From contig CAJJDF010000015.1 of the NCBI GenBank assembly GCA_905182785.1, positions 3,555 to 67,554 on the forward strand: a DNA stretch of 64,000 nt. The letters run 5' to 3'. A program made the position numbers and the translations under genes. This document shows, piece by piece, positions 1 to 22,236 of the stretch. The DNA comes from an uncultured Flavobacteriales bacterium. GTDB taxonomy: Bacteria > Bacteroidota > Bacteroidia > Flavobacteriales_D > CAJJDF01. The notes under the pieces are model-generated. The model searched no databases, was not told where the DNA came from, and saw only the letters and a program-made list of their open reading frames with translations. The first letter of the stretch is position 1. Every line of letters starts with the position of its first letter.

Positions 1-1137
1 TTCAATTTTTTCTTCAGGCTGCAATCTAATTATTAACTTGTTCCGATCAATTTTATTCCCTGAGGGGAAAACATTGTGAGGGACTCTTTTAAAGTTAATA
101 ACAATCTCAGAAAATCTTCTTTTCATTCTTTTTCCTGTTCTGAGGTAAAAAGGAACGCCAGCCCATCTCCAATTATCTACATAAGTTCGTAAAGCTACAA
201 ATGTTTCAGTTTCAGAGTCAAATGTATCAATATCTTCTTGGTAAGACTGAACGTATTTATCATCAATTTCCCCCCTAGTATATTGTCCTTTTACTATTCC
301 TTTATTCACAGTGTTTTTATCAAAAGGACGAAGAGCTTTAAGGACTTTTAATTTTTCATCTCTAACGTTATCTGCGTTTAGTTTTGCTGGAGGTTCCATT
401 GCCACTATACATAGAAGTTGTAACAAATGATTTTGAACCATATCTTTTAAAGCTCCAAATTTATCATAATAGCCTTTTCTAGTTCCCACTCCTAAAGATT
501 CTGAAGCAGTTATTTGAACATTGTCAATGTTTTCTGCATTCCAAGCTAGTTCAAATATTTGATTAGCAAATCTTAATACCATTAAGTTTTGAACGGTTTC
601 TTTTCCTAGATAATGGTCTATTCTATATATCTGTTTTTCTTCAAAATACTTTCTGACATCTTTGTTTAATTGTTCGAATGTATTCAGGTCAGAGCCAAGA
701 GGTTTTTCTAAAACTATTTTGGAAGCTTCATTGATTATTCCATTTTCTGCAAGGTACTTTGAAATAGTACCAAATAGAGTAGAAGAAGTAGAATAATAAA
801 AAACGTCTTGTTCCATTTTTTTTTGAGCTAATTCTTTAGCAAGTACAATGTAATCTTTGCTATCCGTTAAGTCCATCTTGAGATAGCTTAACATGTTCTT
901 TATTTTCTCTAAAATAGATTTCTCTAAATCAGGAATATGAAGTGTTAAGTGTTCTTCTAATAACGTAAAAAATGAATTTACATCATTGGTATTCCTTGAA
1001 ACTACTATGATGTTGGTTTCAGTAATTAATTGGTTGCCTTTTACTCGGTAGTAAATTGCAGGAAATATCTTCCTGAAAGCGAGATCTCCATCTCCTCCAA
1101 AGATGATGAGATTAGTTTTGTAAAGTGTTTTAGTCAT
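1..1137 (-). CDS. zwf: glucose-6-phosphate dehydrogenase (partial; C-terminus lies beyond the left edge)
   Basis: Absent from the ORF track because it is open at the window edge. The minus-strand frame is open from base 1 to the ATG at 1135-1137 (379 codons). The translation starts MTKTLYKTNLIIFGGDGDLAFRKIFPAIYY (GxxGDLxxRK dinucleotide site) and contains EEKQIYRIDHYLGKETVQN (the RIDHYLGKE G6PD signature, encoded around 600-650). Confidence 0.9.
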   Translation of the reverse strand, partial: MTKTLYKTNLIIFGGDGDLAFRKIFPAIYYRVKGNQLITETNIIVVSRNTNDVNSFFTLLEEHLTLHIPDLEKSILEKIKNMLSYLKMDLTDSKDYIVLAKELAQKKMEQDVFYYSTSSTLFGTISKYLAENGIINEASKIVLEKPLGSDLNTFEQLNKDVRKYFEEKQIYRIDHYLGKETVQNLMVLRFANQIFELAWNAENIDNVQITASESLGVGTRKGYYDKFGALKDMVQNHLLQLLCIVAMEPPAKLNADNVRDEKLKVLKALRPFDKNTVNKGIVKGQYTRGEIDDKYVQSYQEDIDTFDSETETFVALRTYVDNWRWAGVPFYLRTGKRMKRRFSEIVINFKRVPHNVFPSGNKIDRNKLIIRLQPEEKIE

Positions 1138-1148
1138 AATTTGTTAGA

Positions 1149-1156
1149 CAAATATA
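1149..1156 (-). promoter_or_regulatory. candidate Bacteroidota -7 promoter box for zwf
   Basis: The minus strand reads TATATTTG (consensus TAnnTTTG) 11 nt upstream of the zwf ATG. This rests on a single motif. Confidence 0.3.
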
Positions 1157-1160
1157 GGGA

Positions 1161-1185
1161 AGTTATTGTAAACAAAACAATAAGT
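1161..1185. promoter_or_regulatory. candidate operator palindrome (ACTTATTGT-N7-ACAATAAGT family)
   Basis: The plus strand reads AGTTATTGT-aaacaaa-ACAATAAGT, so one arm is perfect and the other matches 8/9. It lies 24-48 nt upstream of the zwf ATG and ends 4 nt upstream of the putative -7 box. It has the same arms and the same 7-nt spacer as 18133-18157. Confidence 0.5.
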
Positions 1186-1234
1186 CTGATTAGGGATTTA
1201 ACACAATCAATTTTGTATAAATAAATTGGTGGGC

Positions 1235-2101
1235 TTAAATCTTGATAGTCTCCTTTTCAGAGTGGTATTGAGTTAACTCTTCTATCGGGCATCTAGTTAT
1301 TTTTTTTATCTCCATACCGTGTTTTTCTGCAACTTCTTCTAAAATATCTCTATAAAAATATGCTATAGACCCGACAAAACCTAATGGATATTTTTTATAA
1401 TTTTTATACGGCAAGATTCTTACCTCAAAGAAATTATTAAAACCCTTGACAATTATATTTCTTAGTTCAGGATAATCAAGTTTATTATGATAAAACCTAG
1501 CAAAGTTAGCTAGAAATACATTAGGGTTTTTCTCTCTGTATGTTGTATTAAGTATTTGATCCTTTGTTAATTTAAATTGTTCTTCAAATAAAAGATGCAA
1601 ATCAGGGTGTAAACTTCCACTTAAATATAGTTTTACAAGTTCAATTCCAAGATATGAACCACTTCCTTCATCACCAAAAATATAACCATGAGAAGCAATG
1701 TTTTCTATTTCATTTCCATTTTCCCAAGTACAAGAATTAGCTCCAGTACCCAATATACATGCAATCCCTGTTGAATCTCCTAAAGTAGATCTTGCTGCAG
1801 CAATTAAATCATGATTTACATGAATTTGTGCTTTAATAAATTGAGGTTGTAAAGCATTTTTAATAATTAAATTTTTCTCTTCAGAAGAGCAACCTGCACC
1901 ATAATAATGGACGTCTGTTACTTTCGAAAAATCGATTCTACATTCTAAAAAAACCCTATGCATTTCATTGAAGATCACTTCAGAAGTTTGAAAATAAGGA
2001 TTGAATCCAATAGTTTTTATTCTCTTTATTACGGTTGATTGATCGTCTATGACCACCCAATCCGTTTTTGTAGATCCACTATCAGCAATTACTTTGTACA
2101 T
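1235..2101 (-). CDS. BadF/BadG/BcrA/BcrD-type ATPase, N-acetylglucosamine-kinase-like sugar kinase (candidate glucokinase of the cluster)
   Basis: 288 aa. The N-terminal ADSGSTKTDW phosphate-binding motif plus ILGTGANS and FGDEGSGSYLG are typical of the ASKHA NAGK/BadF family. It lies 4 nt downstream of the GH gene. Confidence 0.7.
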   Translation of the reverse strand: MYKVIADSGSTKTDWVVIDDQSTVIKRIKTIGFNPYFQTSEVIFNEMHRVFLECRIDFSKVTDVHYYGAGCSSEEKNLIIKNALQPQFIKAQIHVNHDLIAAARSTLGDSTGIACILGTGANSCTWENGNEIENIASHGYIFGDEGSGSYLGIELVKLYLSGSLHPDLHLLFEEQFKLTKDQILNTTYREKNPNVFLANFARFYHNKLDYPELRNIIVKGFNNFFEVRILPYKNYKKYPLGFVGSIAYFYRDILEEVAEKHGMEIKKITRCPIEELTQYHSEKETIKI

Positions 2102-2105
2102 ATAA

Positions 2106-3368: not shown

Positions 3369-3372
3369 TTTT

Positions 3373-4176
3373 TTATTGATTTTGATAAACTCTAACGTAA
3401 TCTATTTCCATATATTGAGCCGTTTGAAGAGATGTGTTACTTACATTTCCTCCTAAGTTTCCCCCAACGGCTGTATTTAATAATAAATGAAATTCAGCAT
3501 CAAAAGGCCAAGTTGCACTAATTGTAGAATTTGTTCTTAATACTTTGTAAGTTTCTACATCATCAATGAACCAAACAATACTATTAGCATCCCATTCAAT
3601 TGTATATTTATGAAATAGATTGTCATAAGCCATCGGTTCTGTTTCTCCAAGTTGCCTGTGGTTTCCTAGATTGTCGGCAAAGTGTATCGTGTTAAAAATT
3701 TCAGTACCCCTATTTCCTACAAATTCCATAATGTCAATTTCACCACTAGTAGGCCACCCATTCTCAGGATTGGTTGGAAGCATCCAGAGCGCATGCCATA
3801 ATCCACCTGCATCTGACATCCTGATTGAAGCTTCAATCTTCCCATATTTAAAGTCACCTTTATTTAAAGAGCGTATTCTTCCTGAGGTATAATCAAAACC
3901 AGCAAAAGTTTCTTTAATGGATTTTATTTTTAATATTCCCCCAGATACAGTTACATTTTCTTTTCTGTAGTATTGTTCTTCATTATTTCCCCATCTATAT
4001 AGCCCATAAGTTGTACCATCCCCGATTTGAGTTTCCCATTTATTCAAGTCTAAATCACTTCCATTAAATTCATCTTGCCAAACTATGCTGGATTTTTTTT
4101 CAATTGGATCACTTTGTTTGCAATTATAGATTGTTGCAATTATACAAAGAAAGTATATAATAGATTTGTTTCTCAT
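3373..4176 (-). CDS. GH16 endo-beta-1,3-glucanase (laminarinase), lipoprotein
   Basis: 267 aa. Contains the catalytic GH16 motif GEIDIMEF (ExDxxE) and W/G-rich jelly-roll motifs. The signal peptide ends ...IYNC. Confidence 0.9.
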   Translation of the reverse strand: MRNKSIIYFLCIIATIYNCKQSDPIEKKSSIVWQDEFNGSDLDLNKWETQIGDGTTYGLYRWGNNEEQYYRKENVTVSGGILKIKSIKETFAGFDYTSGRIRSLNKGDFKYGKIEASIRMSDAGGLWHALWMLPTNPENGWPTSGEIDIMEFVGNRGTEIFNTIHFADNLGNHRQLGETEPMAYDNLFHKYTIEWDANSIVWFIDDVETYKVLRTNSTISATWPFDAEFHLLLNTAVGGNLGGNVSNTSLQTAQYMEIDYVRVYQNQ

Positions 4177-4225
4177 GTGTTATTAATTTTACACTTCAAG
4201 TTAGTAAAAATAAAAGCAAAAAAAA

Positions 4226-4249
4226 ACACAGCAACTGCTGTGTTTTTTT
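4226..4249 (-). terminator. rho-independent (bidirectional-looking) terminator after the 610-aa T9SS protein gene
   Basis: The stem ACACAGC/GCTGTGT has a 4-nt loop and is flanked by an A-run (4218-4226) and a T-run (4243-4249). It lies 11 nt downstream of the stop at 4260. Confidence 0.6.
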
Positions 4250-4259
4250 AATTGTAAGT

Positions 4260-6092
4260 CTAGTTTTTTACAACTCGCTTATTTGCTACTCCATTGTTAG
4301 TTATGGCTTTAATTATGTATATTCCAGAAGGATAATTTATTGCATTAATTTTAACTTTATTAGAGTTAGGATTTGATGTTTCAATTAGTTTCCCTTTTAA
4401 GTCATAGATATCAATTTGATTAATGATATTTCCGCCATTAGTAATGTTCCAGGTATTAGATGTTGGATTAGGGTAAACATTTAAGTTCTCTATTGCCAAC
4501 TCTCTGGCTCCTGCATAATTTCCTCCCCATTTAACATCATCAAAATAGTAAACTTTACCAGAACCAGCATTATTAAAATCAAAGAAAATAGAAGCTTTGT
4601 TGTAAACCCAACCACCTGCTAAACCAGTAGCAAGAGCAGCTGTCCCAGTAGCTTCATTAGAAAAGTTAAAGTTTAATATTTCCCATCCACCATTTATTGT
4701 GGTAGTTGCTTCTGTTTCACAGGTGTGTGTTACGTCATTCGCATCTTCAACTTTAAGTCTGATAACTGTATTTGAGTCTGGAGACCAAACTCTTACATTC
4801 ATTGTGTGATCAGTTGTAGAAAATGGAAGTAAAGTAGCAAAGCCAGTAGCAGTTCCAATAGTAGTACCTGCCCATGTTTGAGATCCGGCAGTTTTAGTAA
4901 CTTCCATTACATGATTTGTTGCACTTGTTGGATCTACTACTAACATAGAAGCGTTTCCCCCAAAATCAGTCATTGTATAATCAACATTAGTATCTTCAAA
5001 AGTAACAATTAAATCAATTTGTAATTTTGACGGAGGTGGAGGTGGAGAAGTTGTATCCCCTCCAAACATTACATCATCAAAATAGAAAGTATCTAGAGCC
5101 CCAGCTGTATTAAAGTCCATGAATATAGAAGCTTTGTCGTAGGTATTAGCAACATTAAGAGCAGCTGTTCCAGTTGCTTGGTTAGCAAAATCAAAAGTTA
5201 AAGTATCCCAACCTCCAGCAGTAACAGTTAATGCTTCAGTTTCACAAGTGATAGTTGCGCTAGTTGCATCTTCTACTTTTAATCTGATAGGCGTCCCTGT
5301 AGCAGCTGACCATACTCTTACTGTCATTTTTTGATCAGTAGCAGTAAAAGGAATAGCAGTTGCAAAACCAGTAGCAGTTCCAATAGTAGTACCCGCCCAA
5401 GTTTGTGCTCCAGCAGTTTTGATAACTCTCATTACTTTATTAGTAGCACTAGTAGGATCAACGACAAGATTAGAGGCATTACCACCAAAATCAGTCATTG
5501 TGTAATTTACAGTAGAACCTTCAAAAGTAACAGGTAAGTCGATTTGAGTTAAAGCAGGAGGAGGTGCTAAAGGTCCAGAAATAGAAACTGAATCTAATCC
5601 TATTCCTAAAGCAGAAGTGTTCCTTAATGAAATAATGTATACCATTGAAAGACATCCGGCAGGAGTTGTAATTGAATCCATATAAAGAGTTAATGAAGTA
5701 CCACTAAATGTTTGATAAGCAGTATAACTTCCAACATATGAAGAGTTAGTTATATCATAACATCTAACTCTAACTGAAGCTGTATCAGCAGCACCAGGTC
5801 CACCTGCAGCCCACATATTAATAGTATACTTTGTATTTGGTGTAACAGCAAAAGACTGAGTAGTCAATCTTTTATGAGATGTTGTAGCATTTACTATATT
5901 TGCAAATGAAGTTCCGTGTATTGCACCTAAAGATACTTGAGTAACATTTGAAGCTGAAATACTAGTTGTAGGTCCAAACCAATCTGTTGGATTTCCTGAA
6001 GCCCATGAAGATAAATCGCTTTGAAAAACGACTTGTGCAAATGACAGATTAGTAATTAATGCTAACGTGAATAAAGTAATTAATTTTTTCAT
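4260..6092 (-). CDS. T9SS-secreted non-catalytic protein with three beta-sandwich (CBM-like) modules
   Basis: 610 aa. It has a signal peptide, an N-terminal module (aa ~21-175), two duplicated modules separated by Pro-rich linkers (APPPA, TSPPPPPS), and a C-terminal ~75 aa matching the T9SS sorting-domain pattern (LNVYPNPTSNTWNI...IYDLKGKLI...GIYIIKAITNNG). I recognised no catalytic motif. Confidence 0.75.
   Translation of the reverse strand: MKKLITLFTLALITNLSFAQVVFQSDLSSWASGNPTDWFGPTTSISASNVTQVSLGAIHGTSFANIVNATTSHKRLTTQSFAVTPNTKYTINMWAAGGPGAADTASVRVRCYDITNSSYVGSYTAYQTFSGTSLTLYMDSITTPAGCLSMVYIISLRNTSALGIGLDSVSISGPLAPPPALTQIDLPVTFEGSTVNYTMTDFGGNASNLVVDPTSATNKVMRVIKTAGAQTWAGTTIGTATGFATAIPFTATDQKMTVRVWSAATGTPIRLKVEDATSATITCETEALTVTAGGWDTLTFDFANQATGTAALNVANTYDKASIFMDFNTAGALDTFYFDDVMFGGDTTSPPPPPSKLQIDLIVTFEDTNVDYTMTDFGGNASMLVVDPTSATNHVMEVTKTAGSQTWAGTTIGTATGFATLLPFSTTDHTMNVRVWSPDSNTVIRLKVEDANDVTHTCETEATTTINGGWEILNFNFSNEATGTAALATGLAGGWVYNKASIFFDFNNAGSGKVYYFDDVKWGGNYAGARELAIENLNVYPNPTSNTWNITNGGNIINQIDIYDLKGKLIETSNPNSNKVKINAINYPSGIYIIKAITNNGVANKRVVKN
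4518..5552 (-). repeat. intragenic tandem duplication of a ~165-170-aa module
   Basis: aa 181-345 (5058-5552) and aa 356-525 (4518-5027) of the 610-aa protein align end to end at roughly 60-70% identity by eye. Shared blocks include YTMTDFGGNAS, LVVDPTSATN, QTWAGTTIGTATGFAT, IRLKVEDA, CETEA, ATGTAAL, KASIF and YFDDV. Confidence 0.8.
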
Positions 6093-6101
6093 AATATTTG
6101 T

Positions 6102-7436
6102 TTACTTATTTGTTTTTATTATTATTTTTCTTTTGTAGTTCCCATTTTCATCTTTTATTTGAATGAAATAAGATCCCGGATTTAAAGATTTTAGGCTAAC
6201 ATTTGTTTTTAAAGATTTTATCCCGTTTAATTGAATTAATTTTCTTCCAGAAATACTAAAAACTATAATTTGCTCTATTTCATTTTCAGATGAAATAGTT
6301 AATTGATCTATGAAAGGATTAGGAAATACATTTACTTGGTTATCTATCTGTTTTTCGTTAATTCCTGCAGAAGCATTAAATGATAAACTGAAATTATCTA
6401 AGAAAATAGAATCTTCTGTTGCAGTAGTGGAGTTTAACAAGAACACAAATTTCTCTATCGAAGTAGCATTAGGAATACTAAAGAGATCCATTGTAAAACT
6501 TTCCCAAGTAGGTGAAGAGGAAGTAGTGAATGATTGATCTAATAAATCGACACCCATTGCATCTTGAAATACTATTTTAAAGTCATATGCTCCAGCTGGG
6601 CTATACAATTGAATTTTGGCTTCGTTAAATTTTGATGTATTAAAAGGGTATAAAATTGTTCCTCCAAAAGCACCATCATTTGTTGGTGGTACATATTTCG
6701 TAAATTTCCCACATGTTTTAGAGGTATTAATACCAGAAGTTACAGGATTTATTTCAAACTGGCTATGTGTACCATTTGCAAAATCAAACGTTACATTTCT
6801 TTGACATTCATAATCATCCACAATTGAAGAATCTTTAGGTGTTCCTAAACACGGGTCTATTAAAGTAGGCCCCATTAAATCATCAAACAAATAAGTGTCA
6901 GAGTTAAAAGAATTAGGGTCAAATAACAAAACCAATTGATTAATATTTGTATCTGAAACAGTTAGGTCGGGGGAGTTTACTAAATTAAAAGTAAGAGTTT
7001 CCCAAGCATTGGAAACAGTTGTTACAGCCGTATACTCGCTATGTCTACCAGTAGGATAGTTTGTTGGGCCTGCGGAAGTATTATCTTCCAATGTAATTTG
7101 TAGTGTTTTTCCAATAGATGTACTGTATACTTTTAGTGTCATTTTCTTGGTTCCAGCTCTATAATCTGCAACACTTGCAATCTTTGTAAGTCCAATTGGA
7201 TTAATTAATATTACATCATATTGTGAAGCTCCATCTCTAGTGTATTGAGCGCATTTTGCACTTGTGTTTACCCCTGTAGTAGAAGGGTTAGAAAATGACT
7301 CGTTAAAAACGGATCCATTAAAGAAAGGATAGGTAACTTTTCCGATGTTATCAAAACCATCCCAATTTGACTGAGAAATTGAGTTAAATGAAAAGGAAAG
7401 AGCTACAGAAATTAGTAAGAAGTTAAAGTGTTTCAT
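6102..7436 (-). CDS. T9SS-secreted non-catalytic protein with two CBM-like modules
   Basis: 444 aa with a signal peptide. Two modules each end in a ...Y/I-(F/L)LD(D/N)- strand (TYLFDDLMG, SIFLDNFSL). The C-terminal sorting domain reads VNVFPNPFIDQLTISS...GSYFIQIKDENGNYKRKIIIK. Confidence 0.7.
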   Translation of the reverse strand: MKHFNFLLISVALSFSFNSISQSNWDGFDNIGKVTYPFFNGSVFNESFSNPSTTGVNTSAKCAQYTRDGASQYDVILINPIGLTKIASVADYRAGTKKMTLKVYSTSIGKTLQITLEDNTSAGPTNYPTGRHSEYTAVTTVSNAWETLTFNLVNSPDLTVSDTNINQLVLLFDPNSFNSDTYLFDDLMGPTLIDPCLGTPKDSSIVDDYECQRNVTFDFANGTHSQFEINPVTSGINTSKTCGKFTKYVPPTNDGAFGGTILYPFNTSKFNEAKIQLYSPAGAYDFKIVFQDAMGVDLLDQSFTTSSSPTWESFTMDLFSIPNATSIEKFVFLLNSTTATEDSIFLDNFSLSFNASAGINEKQIDNQVNVFPNPFIDQLTISSENEIEQIIVFSISGRKLIQLNGIKSLKTNVSLKSLNPGSYFIQIKDENGNYKRKIIIKTNK

Positions 7437-7464
7437 TCTATTAGTTAAAAATTAATTTTAAAAT

Positions 7465-7511
7465 ACTTATTGTAAATTTAACTATTACTTATTGTTTAAA
7501 TTACAATTACT
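7465..7511. promoter_or_regulatory. two overlapping degenerate copies of the ACTTATTGT-N7-ACAATAAGT motif
   Basis: 7465-7489 reads ACTTATTGT-aaattta-ACTATTACT (right arm 6/9). 7487-7511 reads ACTTATTGT-ttaaatt-ACAATTACT (right arm 7/9). Both lie 29-75 nt upstream of the 444-aa gene start, in the only sizeable gap inside the cluster. Confidence 0.35.
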
Positions 7512-7548
7512 ATTGACGAATATAGAATAAAAATTGATGAATACCAAT

Positions 7549-9810: not shown

Positions 9811-10949
9811 TTATCAGTAATTTTAATTTCATTTATAAAAACTTCTCCTTCGCCAGTTCCTTCAAAATAGACTTCTCTTATTTGGTCCATTGCAAAATTT
9901 TTATCTTTCAAATTCAAGTTTTTCATAGGGACATTTATTATAGTCCAGTCATTAGAAGTTATTGTTTGAGTTTTACTTGTAAAAATTTCAGCTTTATGTC
10001 CTCTGAAATCGTGTATAAAAACTTTGAATGCTGAGTTTTTTGTTGCTTTTATTTTAATTTGAAAACTAGAATTTTCATCAATACCTCTAAGGTTCATTGC
10101 ATACCAACCATTCCAGTTAATCCCCCATTTTGCCCAGCTGCATTCTTTTGAATTGTATATCCAGTGAATTTGTTTTGTTTCATTTTTAGATATTTCCTCT
10201 ACCAAAGTTTGACATTCGTTATTTTCAGAACCCCAAACATCTTCTTCAAAACTTCCTTCTCTGTAAACAATTTGATTCGCGTTTCCTTTTGGTCTCATGA
10301 GTTCAACATCTGCTCTCATTTTGTCATATTTTTCTTGAGAATAGTCGATAATCGTGATTTCATCTAGAAAGAATGACCCACCACCTTCTAGTTGAAATTT
10401 CATTTGTTTTATTGAGCTAATATCTACTTCATTTTCTTCATCTATAGGGAAATGCCATAATGGAACAATTATTTGTTTCCAAGTTGTATCCATTTCAAGA
10501 CCATAAAGGTATTTTCCTGCATCAATATAATAATAACTTCCTCCACCAGAAAAATCTTCTAAGTTTGCAACAATAGGAATTGCTCGTGCGGTTTTTTCTT
10601 GTGTTCTTACGTAAAATGAAAGTGCTTTTCTGAAACGGGATTCAGACAAATCTGTTGGCTGCCAGTTATTGAAACTGTTTCCAAATCCAATCCATTCACA
10701 TTTTGCTTTATTCCAATCTAACTTTATGCTGGATTTTCCAGAATAAGCTACTTGGTTACTTATTTCGAAGTTTCCACAATTGAAAAGTGAATTCCACATT
10801 GTCCCTGTCCCTTCGCTAAAAAATACTTGTTCATCATCTTCTCTAGAGGCAGGGAATTCATATTTGTCATATAAGACCTGTTCTTGAAATTTTATACTGT
10901 CACAAGTTGCAAGTAGTAATGTAAACGTTATAAAAACTAATTTTCTCAA
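9807..10949 (-). CDS. lipoprotein with two tandem aromatic-rich beta-sandwich modules (candidate surface glycan-binding protein)
   Basis: 380 aa. The lipobox reads LLATC. There are two ~165-aa halves, each with a W/G-rich core (CEWIGFGNSFNNW; WAKWGINWNGWY) and a terminal ...FLDEITII / ...VFINEIKI strand. ATGA overlaps occur at both ends. Confidence 0.6.
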   Translation of the reverse strand: MRKLVFITFTLLLATCDSIKFQEQVLYDKYEFPASREDDEQVFFSEGTGTMWNSLFNCGNFEISNQVAYSGKSSIKLDWNKAKCEWIGFGNSFNNWQPTDLSESRFRKALSFYVRTQEKTARAIPIVANLEDFSGGGSYYYIDAGKYLYGLEMDTTWKQIIVPLWHFPIDEENEVDISSIKQMKFQLEGGGSFFLDEITIIDYSQEKYDKMRADVELMRPKGNANQIVYREGSFEEDVWGSENNECQTLVEEISKNETKQIHWIYNSKECSWAKWGINWNGWYAMNLRGIDENSSFQIKIKATKNSAFKVFIHDFRGHKAEIFTSKTQTITSNDWTIINVPMKNLNLKDKNFAMDQIREVYFEGTGEGEVFINEIKITDK

Positions 10950-11947
10950 GGTGTGTAAGGTTTATTAGTAGTAAATATCAAATGATCAATGTATGCTTTG
11001 GCTAATCCATTGTCTTTGTTGGCCAGGTAAAACACGTTAATAGACATTAATTTTCCTGGTTCTGGTAGTCCGTTACCATTAGTGGAAACTTTATTACCGT
11101 CAACATCAAATTGTATGTCAGAGTACTTGTAACTGATTAGATTCCATCCTGTATCCTCGAACCAATATTCGTAAATAAATCTATCTTCAGTAGCTAAGTC
11201 GAATGTTCCATCTCCATTTTCGTCTTCATCAAACCAAAACTGGATAAATGTGTTTCCAGTACCAGAGTTTTCAATTGGCTTGAAAGCCATGTTAAAAAAC
11301 AAATTAGAAGCACTTGCTGGTAATCCGAAATTAGCTGTGCTAGGCTGAATCATAACTGACCCAATAGCCCAATCCCAAGGGACATTTCCAGTAAAACTGT
11401 AATGACAATTTCCTTTTGCAGATTCTCCGCTTCCACAATCGATTTTTCCTTGAACTGTCGATTGATTAAATTTAGACCAATTTGCACCTTCTCCATTTTC
11501 AAAACTTGTAATAAGGTATCCTGCATCTACTTTGCTTCCAGTAATAGAAACGGTATCATAAAGTATAGGTGAGCCTTCTTCCTTGGGAAAACTTATTTCA
11601 ATATAGGCAGTTTCTATTCCAAATCCAGGGAAAGAATTTGCTCCTCCATCCCAAGTAGAATTGTCAGCAGAAATAACTCTTTGGGTTCCACTTATAGACC
11701 TTTTAGCCCCAGTTGAAGCCCCAGTAATTGAAATTACCCAGTCGGTATTTTTCGATAATTCACCTGTAAAGTGAAGCGTGTTATCTACAGGGAAATCTGC
11801 TGTTTTTTTGTTAACTTCAATTTCTTGGATTATTGAAAATGGGCCGAATAAGTCATTTAAATCAGGACCATCAAAATTTTCTGAATCGTCTTTTCTACAA
11901 GAAAAGATTAAGAGAACTGATATAAGGACTAATGTTGTTTTTTTCAT
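10946..11947 (-). CDS. lipoprotein, candidate surface glycan-binding protein
   Basis: 333 aa. The lipobox reads LIFSC. The protein is rich in beta-strands and ends YIDHLIFT, like the neighbouring CBM-like modules. I recognised no known family. Confidence 0.55.
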   Translation of the reverse strand: MKKTTLVLISVLLIFSCRKDDSENFDGPDLNDLFGPFSIIQEIEVNKKTADFPVDNTLHFTGELSKNTDWVISITGASTGAKRSISGTQRVISADNSTWDGGANSFPGFGIETAYIEISFPKEEGSPILYDTVSITGSKVDAGYLITSFENGEGANWSKFNQSTVQGKIDCGSGESAKGNCHYSFTGNVPWDWAIGSVMIQPSTANFGLPASASNLFFNMAFKPIENSGTGNTFIQFWFDEDENGDGTFDLATEDRFIYEYWFEDTGWNLISYKYSDIQFDVDGNKVSTNGNGLPEPGKLMSINVFYLANKDNGLAKAYIDHLIFTTNKPYTP

Positions 11948-11950
11948 AAT

Positions 11951-13666
11951 TTAAAAAGTAAGAGAGTATAAAAATGTGAATTGTGAAATTCCATAATTCA
12001 CAGAAGTTGCGTCTTTGTGTTTTACATCAAAAAATTGGTATTGAGCAGACAAAGTATTTTTATCGTTAAATCTATATCTTAGCCCTGAAGCATAAGTATT
12101 TTCTGAAAAATTATAATCTAAGATATCGAAATTTTCAATGGCGTTAAATTGATTACGCAGATTCACGTAAGTATTTCCTTTTACCACCCATACTTTGGCA
12201 CCAACCAAAAGGTCTAGTTTCTCGGCAAACTCCCAAGATATTCCCGCATCTATAAAAGTGCTATTAAGTTTTACTTTTTCGTATACTTCTCCAGTTCTCG
12301 AAGTGTTTTCGTATCTAAGTCCTAAATCAACTTTTAGCTGTTTTTTCCATCCAAAAAAATCATTGATATATACATCAGTTCCTGCTTCAATTTGTATAAA
12401 TTTTTTCTTTTTAGAGGTTCCCGTTCCTCTAGACTGAGTCATAAATGCAGCCTTGACAAAACTGTTTTTAAATTTAACAGAATCCGTTCTTACTAAATTT
12501 AGATAAACTCCTCTTCTGTTTGGAGTTGCATCTCCGTAAGGATTCATATTGTTGTATCCAGCAAAATAAGGAATTAGCTCCTCTGATATCTTAATTGAAT
12601 TTTCAGTGTTTCCGCTAATAAAATCAGTGTAACTTATTGGTCTTCCTGTTACATTATTACTTATTTGCTGGTATAACCCAGGGAATTTCGAATAATTAAT
12701 TCTTTTTGTTTGCGCTCCTGGAGATAAAAAATCAGCTCCAATATCTTTATAACCCAATTCTACAGTGATTTTTTTGTCTTCAAAATCTGTAACGAATGCT
12801 AGATCATAAAAATAATCATTTATAGATTCTGGCGCTCTAGCATCTTTGTAATTTATGTATTGCGCTCCAGACATCCCTGTTTCCGTTTTTATCCCTAGAC
12901 TAATGTTTTCTCTCAAATTCCTTTTATAAAGTAAATTAAAAGTATGGACATTATTTTTATATTGAATACTGTCTTGAATAGTTTCTGTAAGGTCAAAAAT
13001 ATTAACACTATTGAAACCAAAGGAAAGGTTTTCACTTTGTTTAATATTTATTGTTCCACCACCATATAATCTTTCTGGCTCTACAATTCCATCAGTTGGT
13101 CTTTGTCTAGTAATGAATCCTTTAAATTTTATGGCTTCGATTACATTCGCAAACTCTAATCCAAAATTCACTTTTGCTCCTTGCATTCTCCAGGAGTTGT
13201 CTTCGTTATAGAACATATCGTAATACACTATTTCTCTTCTCATGGCAAACACATCTCCTTCATTTATTGCACCTTCTTCAATTGTATTGAATAAAGTATA
13301 AGGAGTCATTTTTAGATCTATATCCCCAATTTCATATTTTACTTTATTTCCTGCAACCCCTTTCAAAGTAAGTTGTCTTACATTAAAAGAAACACCACCT
13401 CCCCAGAACCCGCCAATTTCGTTTCTAATTCTAAACATAGAAATTACCTCAGTATTTTTATTTGGGAATAAACTAATTCCCATATCCAATAGCGTGTGTC
13501 CGTAATTCGCTTTTCTTGTTGTAACTGAATCAAGAGATTCGTCTATATTCAATTTATTAGAAAATAAATAACCCCTTGCCGCTCCGTTTATTTGAAACTT
13601 CTTTTGCTGACCAATAAGTACATTGGTAGTTAGAATTAAAAGCAGTATTAATATTTTTTTAGTCAT
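11951..13666 (-). CDS. plug-less outer-membrane beta-barrel (putative porin)
   Basis: 571 aa with a signal peptide. The mature N-terminus enters alternating beta-strand sequence directly, with no TonB box or plug-sized domain. It is rich in Y/G/N and has a C-terminal aromatic signature ...FLYSLTF. Confidence 0.6.
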   Translation of the reverse strand: MTKKILILLLILTTNVLIGQQKKFQINGAARGYLFSNKLNIDESLDSVTTRKANYGHTLLDMGISLFPNKNTEVISMFRIRNEIGGFWGGGVSFNVRQLTLKGVAGNKVKYEIGDIDLKMTPYTLFNTIEEGAINEGDVFAMRREIVYYDMFYNEDNSWRMQGAKVNFGLEFANVIEAIKFKGFITRQRPTDGIVEPERLYGGGTINIKQSENLSFGFNSVNIFDLTETIQDSIQYKNNVHTFNLLYKRNLRENISLGIKTETGMSGAQYINYKDARAPESINDYFYDLAFVTDFEDKKITVELGYKDIGADFLSPGAQTKRINYSKFPGLYQQISNNVTGRPISYTDFISGNTENSIKISEELIPYFAGYNNMNPYGDATPNRRGVYLNLVRTDSVKFKNSFVKAAFMTQSRGTGTSKKKKFIQIEAGTDVYINDFFGWKKQLKVDLGLRYENTSRTGEVYEKVKLNSTFIDAGISWEFAEKLDLLVGAKVWVVKGNTYVNLRNQFNAIENFDILDYNFSENTYASGLRYRFNDKNTLSAQYQFFDVKHKDATSVNYGISQFTFLYSLTF

Positions 13667-15561
13667 TAGAAAATAATTTTTAGTTCCAAAGTAGTTTCGT
13701 GACCTGCAAATTGATCCAATGCAAAATTGCGGTCTTTAAATGTGAAATACCTATGTCTTAAATAAATAGCTGTATTTTTTGCTAATAAATAATCTATCCC
13801 AAGCCCAAAAGCAAACCCCTCCTGGTTTCTTGGGCGGTTAGATTCAATATCAACTTCGGTATCGTAATTTGCAATTACCCTTTCCCATCCTAAATATTGA
13901 GATAATATTACTTTAGGATGTAGTTTGTAATAACTTTCTAATTGGTGAGAATAATAACGCAAATATGCCTCCTCATTAAATACGGTAACAGGCGAAAATT
14001 TCTTTTGTATAGAATTGTATGAACCTAAGTAAAATAAGTGCCAAGGATTTCCAAAAAGATTTATTTTATACTTTACTTGCGCTTCAATGTTATTAAAATG
14101 TTTGTCATTCACAACTGCCCCCTGATTGTCTAAATCAGTTAAATTAAGTGTTTGAAATACATTTCTAAATAAAACAGAAGTGCTGTTATACGGTCCAACA
14201 TTAGCTGGGAAACTCCATCTCCAAAATCTAGACATTGTTAATCCGTTTATGGCGTGACCGTAAGTAATGGATTTGTTTTCGTTTCTAATTTCTTTTGAGA
14301 AACCATTGCCAATTGAAACAATAGCCTCCTTTATTTTAAATTCGGTATTAATATTTAACCCCTGACGGTTATTTGCCATTTGTCCCATACCAAGCATTGC
14401 ACTTCCATTTTGTTGTAACACTCCATTGGCACCAATCACTGTGCTGATTCCAGCTGCAGCAGATGTTGCCTCAACTACAGAAGTATTTACAAATTCGGCA
14501 TTGTTATTTACAACATCAGGATTTATTCTGAAATAATGAATTTCGATTGGGATCTTAGTCAAGCTTTTCTTTAAATTTACTTTTAATGAAACCATTTCGC
14601 CTATTCCTAAATCTTTGTACACATCCTTATAATGTCCCGCTCCAACCTCTCCTAATAAAGAAAATTTATCGAAGCTAAAATAAAACTCACTGGTTAAAAC
14701 TTGGTTACTTATTTCTTCTGTTGCAAGAGCATTAGAGTAAGTTTTTCTATTAAAACTATTCAGACTAATTCTGTGTTTATTAAAAGTTTTTTTAATACTT
14801 CCCGCAATTACATTGTTAGGAATTGTATTGTCATAAAATTTAATAAAATTATTGGAAGTGGAATCATACGATATATTGGCAGGATCTATAAAAGCTGCTC
14901 CAGCATTTTGAGTCTTCCCATACATAAAATTAGCTGATATTCCAAGTGGTAATTCTGTTAAATCTAATATAAATCCTTGAACAGCTTGTTGCGCCCATCT
15001 TGTATCTTGAGAAATTGCCCCGTTCTTATAATAATCTTCGTACCTCTTGTTCAATTCTTTGAATTGCGGATCCCAAGGATTTCTGTCGAAAATGCTATAT
15101 CTATTATAACCAGAAAATGACTTCATTGTGAATGCAGTCATACTATGCCAGTGAATTCCTCCAGCTTTTACGCCAATATTTGCAAATTTTGTTTTAAAAT
15201 TCCCATACAAATTTATTCCTAATTGTAGATTGTGATAGTAATCGAAATCACCATTGTTTTGATTCCAGATTACCAAATCTGTACCAAAAGAAGTCCCTTT
15301 TGATGGACTTCCTCCAATGTTTAGAGTTAACTCTGGCAATTGAGATGCATCACCAACTAGGATCGTTCGTTTACTTAAATATTGGGGTTGGTCATTTAAT
15401 ACTTGAAAAGCATACGGGTTTGTAAACAACCTATGTTGTGTAAAAAATCGATAATTTCCACTGATATTAAATCCTTGCAAAGGAGCTTTTTTAACAATAG
15501 TGTCTTGAGCAACTAATTGAAAAGAAAACAACAGTAATATGATTGTATAAATTGACTTCAT
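13666..15561 (-). CDS. plug-less outer-membrane beta-barrel (putative porin)
   Basis: The ORF track gives 13666-15588. I prefer the second Met (MKSIYTIILLLFSFQLVAQ, a clean signal peptide), ATG at 15559-15561, which gives 631 aa and removes the 26-nt overlap with the symporter. The C-terminus is ...TTLELKIIF. No plug or TonB box. Confidence 0.6.
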   Translation of the reverse strand: MKSIYTIILLLFSFQLVAQDTIVKKAPLQGFNISGNYRFFTQHRLFTNPYAFQVLNDQPQYLSKRTILVGDASQLPELTLNIGGSPSKGTSFGTDLVIWNQNNGDFDYYHNLQLGINLYGNFKTKFANIGVKAGGIHWHSMTAFTMKSFSGYNRYSIFDRNPWDPQFKELNKRYEDYYKNGAISQDTRWAQQAVQGFILDLTELPLGISANFMYGKTQNAGAAFIDPANISYDSTSNNFIKFYDNTIPNNVIAGSIKKTFNKHRISLNSFNRKTYSNALATEEISNQVLTSEFYFSFDKFSLLGEVGAGHYKDVYKDLGIGEMVSLKVNLKKSLTKIPIEIHYFRINPDVVNNNAEFVNTSVVEATSAAAGISTVIGANGVLQQNGSAMLGMGQMANNRQGLNINTEFKIKEAIVSIGNGFSKEIRNENKSITYGHAINGLTMSRFWRWSFPANVGPYNSTSVLFRNVFQTLNLTDLDNQGAVVNDKHFNNIEAQVKYKINLFGNPWHLFYLGSYNSIQKKFSPVTVFNEEAYLRYYSHQLESYYKLHPKVILSQYLGWERVIANYDTEVDIESNRPRNQEGFAFGLGIDYLLAKNTAIYLRHRYFTFKDRNFALDQFAGHETTLELKIIF

Positions 15562-15562
15562 T

Positions 15563-17206
15563 TTACCAAAAGATTGAATATAGTGCAATTAATAATAAGA
15601 TGATTCCGAATGATAAAATATTGTAAGTTTTGTCAGTTTTGAATAAATTAGAAGTAAAATGTATTCCTTTTTTGTCGTCTACCCCTTTGTTTTGTAGTAA
15701 TGATATAACTATCATAATGGTAGTAGTAATTAGAAATGTAATTCCCATTTGATGCATAAATGGTAAGTCTGGAAAGATTGCACTACTTGACCATCCTTTG
15801 GGGCCAATCTTGAAAAACATTGCAATAGGTATAGAAAGAAAAGCACCAATTATTGCAGCTCTTGCTGTGGCTTTTTTCCAAAACAAACCTAAAATAAATA
15901 TGGCTAAGATTCCTGGACTAACTATACCAGTATATTCCTGAATGTATTGAAACATCTCTGGAACACTATCTAGTAAAGGAGCTAAAATCACAGCAATTAT
16001 CAAGGCAACTAATCCAGATAATCGACCTACTTTAACTAGTTGTTTTTCTGATGCTTCTTTGTTGATTAAGGGTTTGTACAAATCCATTGTGAAAATGGTA
16101 GAAGTACTATTTAGCATGGAAGCAAGCGAAGAAACAATTGCTGCTGCTAATGCTGCAAGGATTAATCCTTTTAATCCTGCTGGAATAAATTTAGAAATTA
16201 ACCAAGGATATGCTCTGTCGTTTTCTACAACACCCGCTGCATTGGTAAACTCGGCAACTACCTCAGGGTCTTCAATAAACATTGTGTATGCAATGATTCC
16301 CGGGATTATTACTATCAAAGGGACTATCATTTTTAAGATTGCTGCAAAAACAATTCCTTTTTGTGCTTCTTTGAGACTTTTTGCAGCTAATGTTCTTTGA
16401 ATAATATATTGATTGAAACCCCAATAGTAAATATTAGCAACCCACATTCCTCCTACTAATACTGCAATTCCAGGGTATTTATTGTAATCTTTATGAGCTT
16501 TATCTAAAATCATATCAAATTTCTCTGGAGCCTTTTCAAATATATATTGAAAACCACCCATTATAGATTCGTCAGGCGATATGTGAGTTAGTGCAATTCC
16601 TGTAGTAATTAGACCACCAACAATAAGTAAAACAACTTGAATAACGTCTGTCCATACAACAGAAGATAAACCACCCCACAAAGAGTAAGCAGCTGTAAAC
16701 AATGCAAATCCTATTATGCAATAGATAACCATGGCTCCATCACCTTCTCCCATAATGGTATCAAGTGCTGTTGCTCCTAAATACAAAACAGAGGTTAAAT
16801 TAACTAACACAAACAAGGCTACCCAAAATACTGCTAGAACAGATTTTACTTGAGCGTTGTATCTTTTTTCTAAGAATTCAGGAATGGTGTAAAGTCCTTT
16901 TTCAATGAAAATAGGGAGGAAATATTTACCGACAATAATAAGAGTTAAGGCTGCCATCCATTCGTAAGATGCAATAGCTAGTCCTACTACAAAACCTCCT
17001 CCAGACATTCCAATAAATTGCTCAGCAGATATATTTGCGGCAATTAGCGAAGCTCCAACAGCCCACCAGGGGAGAGATTTACTAGCAAGAAAGTAATCAC
17101 TAGAATTGACTTGATCTTTCTTAGGACGAGAGACAAACAATCCGACTGATAATATTAGGATTGCGTAAACTACTAAAACAACAATGTCAATGGGAGCTAA
17201 ATTCAT
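15563..17206 (-). CDS. sodium:solute symporter family (SGLT-like Na+/glucose) transporter
   Basis: 547 aa with ~13-14 hydrophobic helices. The N-terminus reads ...DYFLASKSLPWWAVGASLIAANISAEQFIGMSG, characteristic of the SSF/SGLT family. Confidence 0.88.
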   Translation of the reverse strand: MNLAPIDIVVLVVYAILILSVGLFVSRPKKDQVNSSDYFLASKSLPWWAVGASLIAANISAEQFIGMSGGGFVVGLAIASYEWMAALTLIIVGKYFLPIFIEKGLYTIPEFLEKRYNAQVKSVLAVFWVALFVLVNLTSVLYLGATALDTIMGEGDGAMVIYCIIGFALFTAAYSLWGGLSSVVWTDVIQVVLLIVGGLITTGIALTHISPDESIMGGFQYIFEKAPEKFDMILDKAHKDYNKYPGIAVLVGGMWVANIYYWGFNQYIIQRTLAAKSLKEAQKGIVFAAILKMIVPLIVIIPGIIAYTMFIEDPEVVAEFTNAAGVVENDRAYPWLISKFIPAGLKGLILAALAAAIVSSLASMLNSTSTIFTMDLYKPLINKEASEKQLVKVGRLSGLVALIIAVILAPLLDSVPEMFQYIQEYTGIVSPGILAIFILGLFWKKATARAAIIGAFLSIPIAMFFKIGPKGWSSSAIFPDLPFMHQMGITFLITTTIMIVISLLQNKGVDDKKGIHFTSNLFKTDKTYNILSFGIILLLIALYSIFW

Positions 17207-17231
17207 GTCTTATAATGTTAATTACACGATT

Positions 17232-17256
17232 ACTTATTGTAATACTGACGCTAAGA
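17232..17256. promoter_or_regulatory. operator-like site in the leader of the symporter gene
   Basis: Reads ACTTATTGT-aatactg-ACGCTAAGA (perfect left arm, right arm 6/9), 26-50 nt upstream of the symporter ATG (17206). A TATTTTTG -7-like box lies on the minus strand at 17260-17267, just upstream of it. Confidence 0.4.
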
Positions 17257-17268
17257 TAGCAAAAATAA

Positions 17269-17961
17269 TTATACATCAAAATTGAATCCTTTCTTTTCAA
17301 GGATTTCATACTGTTTTTTATCGAACTGAAATAATTTGGCAGGTCTATGAGAAACATTCTCTTGGAGTTTCCCAGTTTCTTTTAAAAGTTTCATTTGAAG
17401 AATTTTTTTACGAAAATTCCTTGTATCCATTTTAATATCTAAAATAGCTTCATACAAAAGTTTTAGCTCGGTAAGTGTAAATAGTTGTGGCAACAATTCA
17501 AATCCTAAAGGCCTGATTCTAACTGATTTTTGAAGTTTTTGGATAGAACTCAATAGAATTTTATCATGATCAAAAGCAAGTTCGTTTATTTTTTTTATTT
17601 TAAACCACTTAGCTTTCGAGGCAAAAGAAGAAGGATTTAATTCGTAATCGTCAATTTTTATAAGGGTATAATAACCAGTGGTTATTACTCTGCCAAGAGG
17701 GTGTCTTTTAATTTCACCAAAAGTTTCTACTTGTTCGAAGAACAAATCACTCAAACCAGTAAGATCTTTTAAAATATGATTTACAGAGACATTCAAATCT
17801 TCATCAGGTTTCATTAAGTCTCCAGGTAAGGCCCAAAAATTTTTAAAAGGAACTTCACCTCTTTTGATTAATAAGACTTTTAAATCTTTTCCGTCAAAAC
17901 CGAAAACGACACAATCAATTGAGACGGCCAGTGTAAAATATTTTTTTAGGTTTTTTTCCAA
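17269..17961 (-). CDS. Nudix-domain + winged-helix transcription regulator (NrtR/AraR-like), catalytically degenerate
   Basis: 230 aa. The N-terminal Nudix fold has its Nudix box degenerated (GDLMKPDEDLNVSVNHILKDLTG; REUxEE is replaced by NHILKD). The C-terminal ~90 aa (FTLTELKLLYEAILDIKMDTRNFRKKILQ...) resembles the NrtR wHTH. Confidence 0.7.
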   Translation of the reverse strand: MEKNLKKYFTLAVSIDCVVFGFDGKDLKVLLIKRGEVPFKNFWALPGDLMKPDEDLNVSVNHILKDLTGLSDLFFEQVETFGEIKRHPLGRVITTGYYTLIKIDDYELNPSSFASKAKWFKIKKINELAFDHDKILLSSIQKLQKSVRIRPLGFELLPQLFTLTELKLLYEAILDIKMDTRNFRKKILQMKLLKETGKLQENVSHRPAKLFQFDKKQYEILEKKGFNFDV

Positions 17962-18124: not shown

Positions 18125-18165
18125 TTCAAATAACTTATTGTACATTTAACAATAAGTTATTTGAA
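18125..18165. promoter_or_regulatory. perfect 17-bp-arm palindrome; candidate operator
   Basis: Reads TTCAAATAACTTATTGT-acattta-ACAATAAGTTATTTGAA, with a core ACTTATTGT-N7-ACAATAAGT at 18133-18157. It sits in the 317-nt divergent region between the regulator (start 17961) and gap (start 18279). Confidence 0.55.
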
Positions 18166-18242: not shown

Positions 18243-19274
<1,032 letters not shown>

Positions 19275-22146: not shown

Positions 22147-22236
22147 GTTTTAATAATTTTATGTGAAAATAGTTAATAAAAGTTGAAAAATCAACAAACA
22201 GAAGTAACTTCCGCTTAAGCTCTCTAAAAGTAGGAG

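Follow-up and report, generated by a model that had tools for sequence, protein, structure and literature searches.

The SusC/SusD pair is the operational definition of a polysaccharide utilization locus (PUL), and it also serves as the marker for predicting and quantifying glycan use by Bacteroidota in the gut and in the ocean, for example in SusC/D-based metaproteomics of algal blooms. SusC-like proteins are TonB-dependent transporters (TBDTs) of about 1000 residues, formed by CarboxypepD_reg/Plug domains and a TonB_dep_Rec barrel. Laminarin, whose turnover ranks among the largest carbon fluxes of the ocean, is the probable substrate of the gene cluster analysed here, which lies in a stretch of 64,000 nucleotides from an uncultured Flavobacteriales bacterium (contig CAJJDF010000015.1; this whole stretch is called the window below). 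In the cluster, a cassette of two outer-membrane barrels and two lipoproteins (BarA, BarB, lp333 and lp380) is found in the place of SusC/SusD. A design without SusC/SusD has precedent. The closest described system is chu_1276-chu_1280 of Cytophaga hutchinsonii, termed an "atypical PUL", whose products are a pair of outer-membrane proteins, a pair of beta-sandwich proteins and, from chu_1280, an endoglucanase (Ji 2014; Zhou 2016; Zhang et al. 2025, PMC12016534). For the genes chu_1276, chu_1277, chu_1279 and chu_1280, a requirement or an important role in cellulose use was reported in each case; CHU_1279, of 375 residues and with two domains resembling carbohydrate-binding modules (CBMs), is essential for growth on cellulose, and the chu_1276 mutant is defective on low glucose too (PMC12016534). 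CHU_1277 is needed for the use of both cellulose and cello-oligosaccharides (PMC5553014). According to the passage of PMC12016534 that cites Zhu 2015, the SusC/SusD homologues of C. hutchinsonii are dispensable for cellulose use. Besides, a laminarin PUL in a metagenome-assembled genome (MAG) of the NS4 clade was remarked on as being without susCD, with no account of a replacement (PMC10108472).

The cassette can be assigned to the atypical PUL type of chu_1276-1280 because BarB is, by sequence, a clear homologue of CHU_1277. The CHU_1277 sequence, taken from the supplementary table of PMC5553014, matched a hidden Markov model (HMM) of 38 BarB sequences with E 1.9e-123 (399 bits), and BLASTP aligned it to the BarB of the window at 33.5% identity over 546 residues (E 3e-88). 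BarA, lp333 and lp380 are presumed to be the counterparts of CHU_1276, CHU_1278 and CHU_1279, respectively, from order, size and domain type. A BarA-type barrel always stands directly upstream of BarB, as chu_1276 does of chu_1277. In lp380, W86/F89/F185 and W272/W275/F362 are spaced like the binding residues W89/F92/F180 and Y253/F256/F343 of CHU_1279, and the protein has weak CBM30/CBM_4_9 matches. The two systems appear to share the same order and parts: two barrels, a beta-sandwich protein, a tandem CBM-like protein of about 375-380 residues and a glycoside hydrolase (GH), with no SusC/SusD; moreover, the fold search with the barrels returns TBDT barrels, as was reported for CHU_1276. They differ in substrate, since the locus of the window targets a soluble beta-1,3-glucan with GH16, GH158 and GH3 whereas the Cytophaga system targets crystalline cellulose, and in control, which would be by an NrtR/AraR-type repressor here and is by a sigma factor of the extracytoplasmic function (ECF) type in C. 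hutchinsonii. The window locus also adds an SSF symporter, a kinase, zwf and two proteins anchored by a type IX secretion system (T9SS), and its host is a marine planktonic flavobacterium.

An earlier note on this DNA had claimed that the cluster is devoid of SusC/SusD, and this was borne out on every level that was scanned. Pfam and NCBIfam gave no match to Plug, TonB_dep_Rec, CarboxypepD_reg or SusD in any of the 13 products, the barrels remaining without one even at E<=1, and no SusD-like (TPR-like, SGBP-A) lipoprotein was matched by Pfam in any cluster product. Neither Plug, TonB_dep_Rec nor SusD was found in the other large open reading frames of the window that were scanned. When 34 BarB and 36 BarA homologues were scanned singly, no Plug or TonB_dep_Rec appeared, just sub-threshold OMP_b-brl matches. 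The usual SusC/SusD slot is indeed held by two plug-less barrels and two lipoproteins, beta-sandwich/CBM-like (lp380) or without an assigned domain (lp333). That the 571- and 631-residue proteins might be fragments of SusC or of another TBDT, an objection already foreseen in the note, is ruled out by the conservation of both families at full length, by the 70 members with no Plug or TonB_dep_Rec signal and by the lack of an N-terminal domain in the structural models. One further pair of the window, at 51863-56628 on the minus strand, looks like SusC/SusD and was rejected: its 1018-residue product is a TPR protein, and its 569-residue product matches neither Pfam nor the barA and barB HMMs. The latter has a signal peptide, ends in ...TLRF and resembles an unannotated outer-membrane barrel; its gene overlaps by 1 nucleotide with that of the TPR-repeat protein.

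Both BarA and BarB have a signal peptide and a C-terminal phenylalanine, as read off the sequence. The AlphaFold2 model of BarB (predicted local distance difference test, pLDDT, 69.5) shows 22 strands, and that of BarA (pLDDT 77) is a larger barrel of like kind; in both, an N-terminal globular domain is absent and the signal peptide leads directly into strand 1. Foldseek searches against the PDB gave only generic barrel matches, with template modelling (TM) scores <=0.45 and 6-11% identity: 22-strand TBDT barrels, SusC, RagA, MtrB and LptD for BarB, and porins, OccK, AlgE and LptD, besides PgaA, PelB/C and BcsC, for BarA. Sequence and profile searches of the PDB were empty for both, Pfam assigned them to no family except for sub-threshold OMP_b-brl, and no solved structure was found for any member of either barrel family. 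The two are not recognisable as paralogues of each other (hhalign probability 14%, BLASTP blank). The densest invariant residues fall in the least confident loops of the models (120-160 and 316-357 in BarB; 219-246 and 359-384 in BarA), which would be lumen or interface loops. The BarB motifs WRxQG, SPGAQ and PYGxATPNRxG are retained in members tied to differing substrates, which argues for a common mechanism and not for substrate specificity.

The description of the cluster as a TonB-independent architecture for glycan capture and import stands as far as the missing plug is concerned; TonB-independence itself is what we infer from that absence. The barrel-lipoprotein cassette could instead be an energised, gated transporter, an analogue of SusCD made from other parts, with a lipoprotein as plug or lid and coupling by TonB/ExbBD or by other means. 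Two barrels stand to two lipoproteins, an lp333-like lipoprotein follows the barrels in all sampled catabolic loci, the 22 strands of BarB equal the TBDT count and Foldseek lists LptD-LptE and SusC/RagA barrels; moreover, for CHU_1279 it is physical presence that matters above binding activity, which parallels reports on SusD (PMC12016534). We still consider such a transporter unlikely, although worth keeping in mind: the barrels have no N-terminal extension, Plug or TonB-box segment, strand 1 of BarB beginning only about 7 residues past the cleavage site; tonB/exbBD genes are absent from every sampled locus; and one barrel pair, next to a glycosyltransferase of family 2 (GT2) and described below, comes without any lipoprotein.

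The two lipoproteins are distinct from each other, BLASTP giving no alignment that would make them paralogues. The lipobox of lp380 reads ...LLATC followed by DS. The protein consists of two homologous CBM-like beta-sandwich domains (N- versus C-terminal half, BLASTP 7e-8), its invariant motifs being CxWxx[FW]G and F, and the PDB sequence search gave no relative. For lp333 (lipobox ...IFSC followed by RKDDSE, an acidic signal resembling those for surface export) there was no match in Pfam, NCBIfam or the PDB. An HMM of its family finds a member after barB in three xylan- or mannan-type loci (L043, L044 and L046), and the other sampled catabolic loci have an unannotated gene of similar size in that position.

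Beta-1,3-glucan, or laminarin, as the substrate had been proposed from the enzyme set, and it is well supported because GH16, GH158 and GH3 make up the catalytic complement of the beta(1,3)-glucan locus in Bacteroides. The GH16 and GH3 calls both hold (Pfam 4e-70 for the latter; Table 1). In the PDB, GH16 matches an endo-1,3-beta-glucanase and many laminarinases, and its lipobox, read off the sequence, is ...IYNC followed by KQSD; the best PDB relative of GH3 is BoGH3B. The third enzyme, formerly described as a "GNE-type TIM-barrel hydrolase", is a TIM-barrel enzyme of beta-glucan type as stated, and its identity is GH158. It has a C-terminal Ig-like domain besides the TIM barrel, and Pfam gives just a weak Glyco_hydro_2_C match. 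The SGLT-type Na+ symporter proposed for inner-membrane uptake was likewise confirmed, with further NCBIfam matches to PRK10484 (2.4e-115) and TIGR00813 (3e-108). The enzymes, the inner-membrane transporter and an NrtR-type regulator for one glycan are therefore co-localised in one co-directional cluster (GH16, GH158, GH3, SSF and NrtR-type). Judging by its genes, this uncultured marine flavobacterium probably has here a complete and regulated locus for the utilisation of beta-1,3-glucan (laminarin).

The envelope content is larger than had been noted, two T9SS-anchored proteins having been overlooked. The one of 610 residues, a putative glucan-binding protein, contains two near-identical repeats of about 165 residues (roughly 180-345 and 355-520), besides a C-terminal sorting domain (CTD). 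Its match to PDB 8qx6, a "PKD domain-containing protein", is weak (5e-4), and a kinship with the laminarin-binding CBM families lately described from marine Bacteroidota is possible. The one of 444 residues has two beta-rich domains and a CTD, and most related loci keep it in the place between GH3 and GH16.

Conservation of the gene order in related genomes, which the earlier note had proposed to check, was found. Scanning GTDB with a single genome for each species gave 39 loci, all of them in MAGs, and the 13 proteins of the cluster were searched against the open reading frames of 42 loci. In the GTDB species loci and in JGI/ENA contigs, the order barA-barB-lp333-lp380 is held wherever the DNA extends, in about 40 species-level genomes of uncultured Flavobacteriales or Cytophagales, and barA and barB adjoin or overlap by 1 nucleotide in many loci. 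Regulator and symporter are upstream in most of them; downstream, most loci reaching far enough have GH3, then in some cases a T9SS protein, then GH16 and GH158, and the kinase is downstream in many. The arrangement, repeated in the same order in about 40 independent genomes at species level, is far beyond chance.

In another reading, the barrels would be scaffolds or anchors on which surface enzymes are presented, together with cargo of T9SS or lipoprotein type, or else they would be general porins, with import left to an unlinked SusCD. Loss of CHU_1277 or CHU_1276 lowers the beta-glucosidase activity associated with the cells, which was read as altered enzyme presentation (PMC5553014); the cluster has two T9SS-CTD proteins, and 64 kb of the genome is in view. 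Nevertheless, the cassette is kept in ten loci with no T9SS protein (L018, L022-L024, L032, L034, L038, L043, L046 and L049), it travels with carbohydrate-active enzymes (CAZymes) of varied specificity as an importer would, and it occupies the exact susC/susD position beside an inner-membrane sugar transporter, to which it is translationally coupled (1-nucleotide gap). The dispensability of the C. hutchinsonii SusC/SusD homologues for cellulose, in the passage mentioned above, points in the same direction, and we think that a scaffold or general porin role is improbable.

The barrel families extend far beyond these loci. Homologues number in the hundreds for BarB and for BarA alike, all labelled "hypothetical" and nearly all from MAGs of Flavobacteriales, Crocinitomicaceae or Cytophagales; a match at 100% is from a MAG labelled "Urechidicola sp.". 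A BarB profile search of 1.84 billion cluster representatives returned 600 clusters (defined at 50% identity) at E<=1e-3 and 254 at E<=1e-30, almost all of 560-600 residues. The literature places the chu_1276-1280 cluster in three cellulolytic Cytophagaceae only, whereas here 600 clusters and several CAZyme sets are involved. Besides C. hutchinsonii, which is known from the literature, no cultured carrier turned up, the carriers being marine or freshwater MAGs or metagenome contigs; 20 barrel-family representatives looked up in two cluster listings gave no cultured-organism name, and with the BarA homologue from Cytophagales as query the same family of MAGs came up again, without any entry from Cytophaga. 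The lack of cultured carriers may be the reason why the system escaped study.

The contexts of 12 distant BarB members were inspected, with HMM checks on four of them (L043-L046). A BarA-sized barrel gene precedes BarB in all 12, and an lp333-sized gene comes next in 11. The neighbours include GH10 with GH3 (two loci), a CBM30-GH26-CBM9 enzyme, GH18, and sets similar to GH16/GH158 with major facilitator superfamily (MFS) or SSF transporters. In the mannan-type locus L044 (13147-16128), an lp380-type CBM tandem is fused N-terminally to the 993-residue CBM30-GH26-CBM9 enzyme (HMM 1.3e-69), and two lp333-like genes precede that enzyme. The locus L045 (2941-12416) is of another kind. Its distant barA-barB pair (608 and 558 residues) has the same 1-nucleotide stop/start overlap and no lipoproteins; upstream there is a GT2 protein of 1263 residues, similar to cellulose synthases, whose C-terminal domain is GH158-like (6.6e-34 against the GH158 of the window), and downstream a 689-residue acyltransferase. 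Its gene content suggests a locus in which beta-glucan export depends on a synthase and employs the same barrels.

This locus, together with the AlgE, PgaA, PelB/C and BcsC matches of BarA, could suggest that the barrel pair is chiefly a polysaccharide export channel, as in synthase-dependent secretion of exopolysaccharide (EPS), and that its catabolic placement is secondary. We regard this as very improbable, since 11 of the 12 distant contexts and all of the about 40 close loci are catabolic (glycoside hydrolases, sugar symporter, kinase, sugar-type regulator), CHU_1277 is needed for the use of cellulose and cello-oligosaccharides (PMC5553014) and the fold matches are generic. The barrel pair would rather be a generic conduit for glycan chains, specificity being conferred by the accompanying lipoproteins, CBMs and enzymes, and it may be bidirectional because the same pair adjoins a GT2 glucan synthase.

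Our preferred reading is that of a laminarin locus in which BarA-BarB-lp333-lp380 act as an uptake module other than SusC/SusD, homologous to chu_1276-1280, and we give it a probability of roughly 70%. The working order would be as follows. The T9SS-anchored repeat proteins, with lp333 and lp380, would capture laminarin at the cell surface, where the lipoprotein GH16 (placed by its lipobox, with the activity of its family) would cut it to oligosaccharides. A channel complex of BarA and BarB would let these pass the outer membrane by facilitated diffusion, as suggested by the lack of a plug and of a TonB box, and the flux would be drawn by periplasmic hydrolysis (GH3 and GH158) and Na+-coupled uptake. 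Glucose would enter via the SSF symporter and be phosphorylated by the BadF-type kinase, presumed to be a glucokinase, on its way to central metabolism, with zwf as one exit among others. The NrtR/AraR-type regulator would govern at least two promoter regions via a ATTACAATAAGTAAT-like operator, as the recurrence of the motif suggests.

Several points weigh against this reading. The locus of the window is known from genes alone, all members being MAGs or metagenomes, and 64 kb of genome is in view, so that a canonical SusCD laminarin PUL may lie elsewhere. Sequence homology to the Cytophaga system comes from one of the four pairs, BarB/CHU_1277. In C. hutchinsonii itself there are three candidates for the role of CHU_1276/1277: channel, enzyme presentation and glucose uptake. 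Moreover, the barrel models are of moderate confidence, weakest in the most conserved loops, and pore geometry is not readable from them; a lipoprotein could be an LptE-like plug or a SusD-like lid, or there could be an unrecognised energy coupling.

All open reading frames were recovered where the earlier note had placed them, and the 13 minus-strand genes fill positions 1-17961 of the window (Table 1). They are transcribed in the order regulator, SSF symporter, barA, barB, lp333, lp380, GH3, 444-residue T9SS protein, 610-residue T9SS protein, GH16, GH158, kinase and zwf, the last with its N-terminal 379 residues inside the window and continuing past the left end. The reported junctions are present with one correction. 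The ATGA overlap at 9807-9810, the 1-nucleotide overlap at 13666 (TAATG) and the 1-nucleotide gap at 15562 are all in the sequence, the gap provided that barA starts at the ATG at 15561; the open reading frame has a longer TTG start at 15588, and the 631-residue homologues favour the ATG. The overlap at 10946-10949 exists, but its letters read TTGA, with the TTG start of lp380, and not ATGA. TTG is the apparent start codon of both lp380 (9807-10949) and the regulator (17269-17961). Gaps of more than 80 nucleotides are solely 4177-4259 (83 nucleotides), in which the terminator hairpin was found as described, and 7437-7548 (112 nucleotides). Just past the cluster, at 21022-23850 (minus strand), the window encodes a 537-residue T9SS-CTD protein and a 374-residue protein with a weak match to NHL/lactonase-like beta-propellers.

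Table 1. Coordinates (in the window), strands and supporting evidence of the probable laminarin cluster and its divergent neighbour.
Feature	Position	Strand	Evidence
zwf (glucose-6-phosphate dehydrogenase)	1..1165	-	G6PD_N 3.9e-48, G6PD_C 1.9e-85 (Pfam)
BadF/BadG/BcrA/BcrD-type sugar kinase (N-acetylglucosamine-kinase-like), 288 aa	1235..2101	-	Pfam PF01869 1.3e-7
GH158 endo-beta-1,3-glucanase, 420 aa	2106..3368	-	PDB 9oro 1.3e-99, 6pal 1.6e-74
GH16 laminarinase, 267 aa, probable lipoprotein	3373..4176	-	Pfam GH16 4.3e-24; PDB 4crq 1.5e-49
Hairpin resembling an intrinsic terminator, 13-bp stem and T-run, after the 610-aa gene	4220..4249	-	
610-aa T9SS-sorted surface protein	4260..6092	-	Por_Secre_tail 2.3e-11; TIGR04183 1.6e-13
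444-aa T9SS-sorted surface protein	6102..7436	-	Por_Secre_tail 6.7e-12; synteny
Two TACAATAAGTA-like motif copies in the 112-nt gap, candidate operator and internal promoter region	7464..7496	-	
GH3 beta-glucosidase, 753 aa, probable lipoprotein	7549..9810	-	Pfam GH3 N, C, Fn3-like; PDB 5jp0 8e-187
lp380 lipoprotein, tandem CBM-like	9807..10949	-	Pfam CBM30 1.4e-6, CBM_4_9_1 7.6e-3; synteny
lp333 lipoprotein	10946..11947	-	Position after barB; family HMM
barB, 571-aa plug-less outer-membrane beta-barrel, CHU_1277 family	11951..13666	-	AlphaFold2 model; family HMM
barA, 631-aa plug-less outer-membrane beta-barrel	13666..15561	-	AlphaFold2 model; synteny
SSF (SGLT-type) Na+/solute symporter, 547 aa	15563..17206	-	Pfam SSF 1.1e-72
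Candidate operator, a TACAATAAGTA motif (ATTAC-N5-GTAAT) lying upstream of the symporter within the 62-nt gap	17231..17241	-	
NrtR/AraR-family regulator, 230 aa, TTG start	17269..17961	-	NrtR_WHD 5.4e-26, AraR_C 5.3e-15, NUDIX 5.4e-6
GAPDH, divergently transcribed	18279..19274	+	Pfam Gp_dh_N, Gp_dh_C

The regulator combines a degenerate Nudix domain with a winged helix (NCBIfam NtrR 3.6e-44, under the cutoff). Its candidate operator is TACAATAAGTA, the core of ATTAC-N5-GTAAT, with 9 occurrences in the window where 2.8 are expected; no shuffle reached 9. Four of these nine matches are in promoter gaps of the cluster: one before the symporter, two before the 444-residue gene (7464-7474 and 7486-7496) and one, a variant, between the regulator and GAPDH (18132-18142). 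Near-matches are also present in 1166-1234. In many related loci the motif recurs in the gap between NrtR and SSF or between NrtR and barA, and in two it is upstream of zwf. GAPDH may be in the same regulon because of the variant in the shared intergenic region; it adjoins the regulator in four loci (L001, L006, L029 and L035). Regarding the fate of the sugar, the proposal that glucose is fed straight into the oxidative pentose-phosphate route was an over-reading. The gene zwf follows the kinase in only 3 related loci, and the locus would feed central sugar metabolism generally, because others carry PGI and GAPDH or PFK and PK beside the regulator. The kinase itself has a weak PF01869 match (31.9 bits, barely over the cutoff), and NCBIfam NagK (1.4e-9) is far under its cutoff.

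What we did not find described is, first, a replacement of SusC/SusD by a conserved cassette of two barrels and two lipoproteins with homology to the Cytophaga system; second, such a cassette serving soluble laminarin in abundant uncultured marine flavobacteria; and third, a barrel family spanning hundreds of lineages and several glycan classes. A cassette of this kind, conserved and widespread, would mean that surveys based on SusC/SusD under-count the capacity for using laminarin and apparently also xylan, mannan and chitin. For C. hutchinsonii, its cellulose-uptake system gains hundreds of relatives, with soluble substrates and easier assays, and the conserved motifs (WRxQG, SPGAQ and PYGxATPNRxG in BarB; CxWxx[FW]G in lp380) become targets for mutagenesis. 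It is tempting to go further and to propose that BarA/BarB with an lp333-type lipoprotein form a second phylum-wide class of Bacteroidota glycan transporter, unrelated to SusC/SusD, TonB-independent, modular and maybe bidirectional; this we hold as a tentative proposal, with a little less than an even chance of being right. If it were true, the same core would pair with enzyme sets for beta-1,3-glucan, xylan, mannan, chitin and cellulose, and PUL predictors keyed to susC/susD would miss a whole class of loci, notably in uncultured marine and freshwater Flavobacteriales.

Among known systems for the same substrate, the Bacteroides beta(1,3)-glucan locus 1,3GUL (Déjean et al. 2020, PMC7157763; Tamura et al. 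2021) has in common with the window GH16, GH158 and GH3 (BoGH3B-like), the GH158 of the window matching BuGH158 (6pal), as well as surface glycan-binding proteins (SGBPs) with CBM-like tandems. In contrast, the Bacteroides locus has a SusC-like TBDT, a SusD-like SGBP-A and a hybrid two-component sensor, none of which is in the cluster, where BarA/BarB/lp333/lp380 and an NrtR-type regulator are found instead. The laminarin PULs of Gramella/Christiangramia forsetii and Formosa (Kabisch 2014, Unfried 2018) are alike in substrate, marine setting, GH16/GH3 and CBM-rich surface binders, but they are defined by SusC/SusD and usually have GH17, GH30 and MFS transporters. The highly expressed "porin" of Formosa B (Unfried 2018) was considered as a relative of the barrels and discarded, as it belongs to a nitrogen-metabolism cluster. 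Finally, the sugar porins LamB/ScrY, ChiP, CymA and OprB and the EPS exporters AlgE, BcsC and PgaA are, as we propose for BarA and BarB, plug-less barrels that pass glycans without TonB. By Pfam and by PDB sequence and profile searches, the two barrels belong to none of the LamB, OprB, KdgM, AlgE, BcsC and PgaA families, and Foldseek gave no TM score above 0.45. They also differ from these porins and exporters in their much larger size, with about 22 strands for BarB and a probably higher number for BarA against 12-18, and in being two different barrels that are always encoded together, with dedicated lipoproteins.

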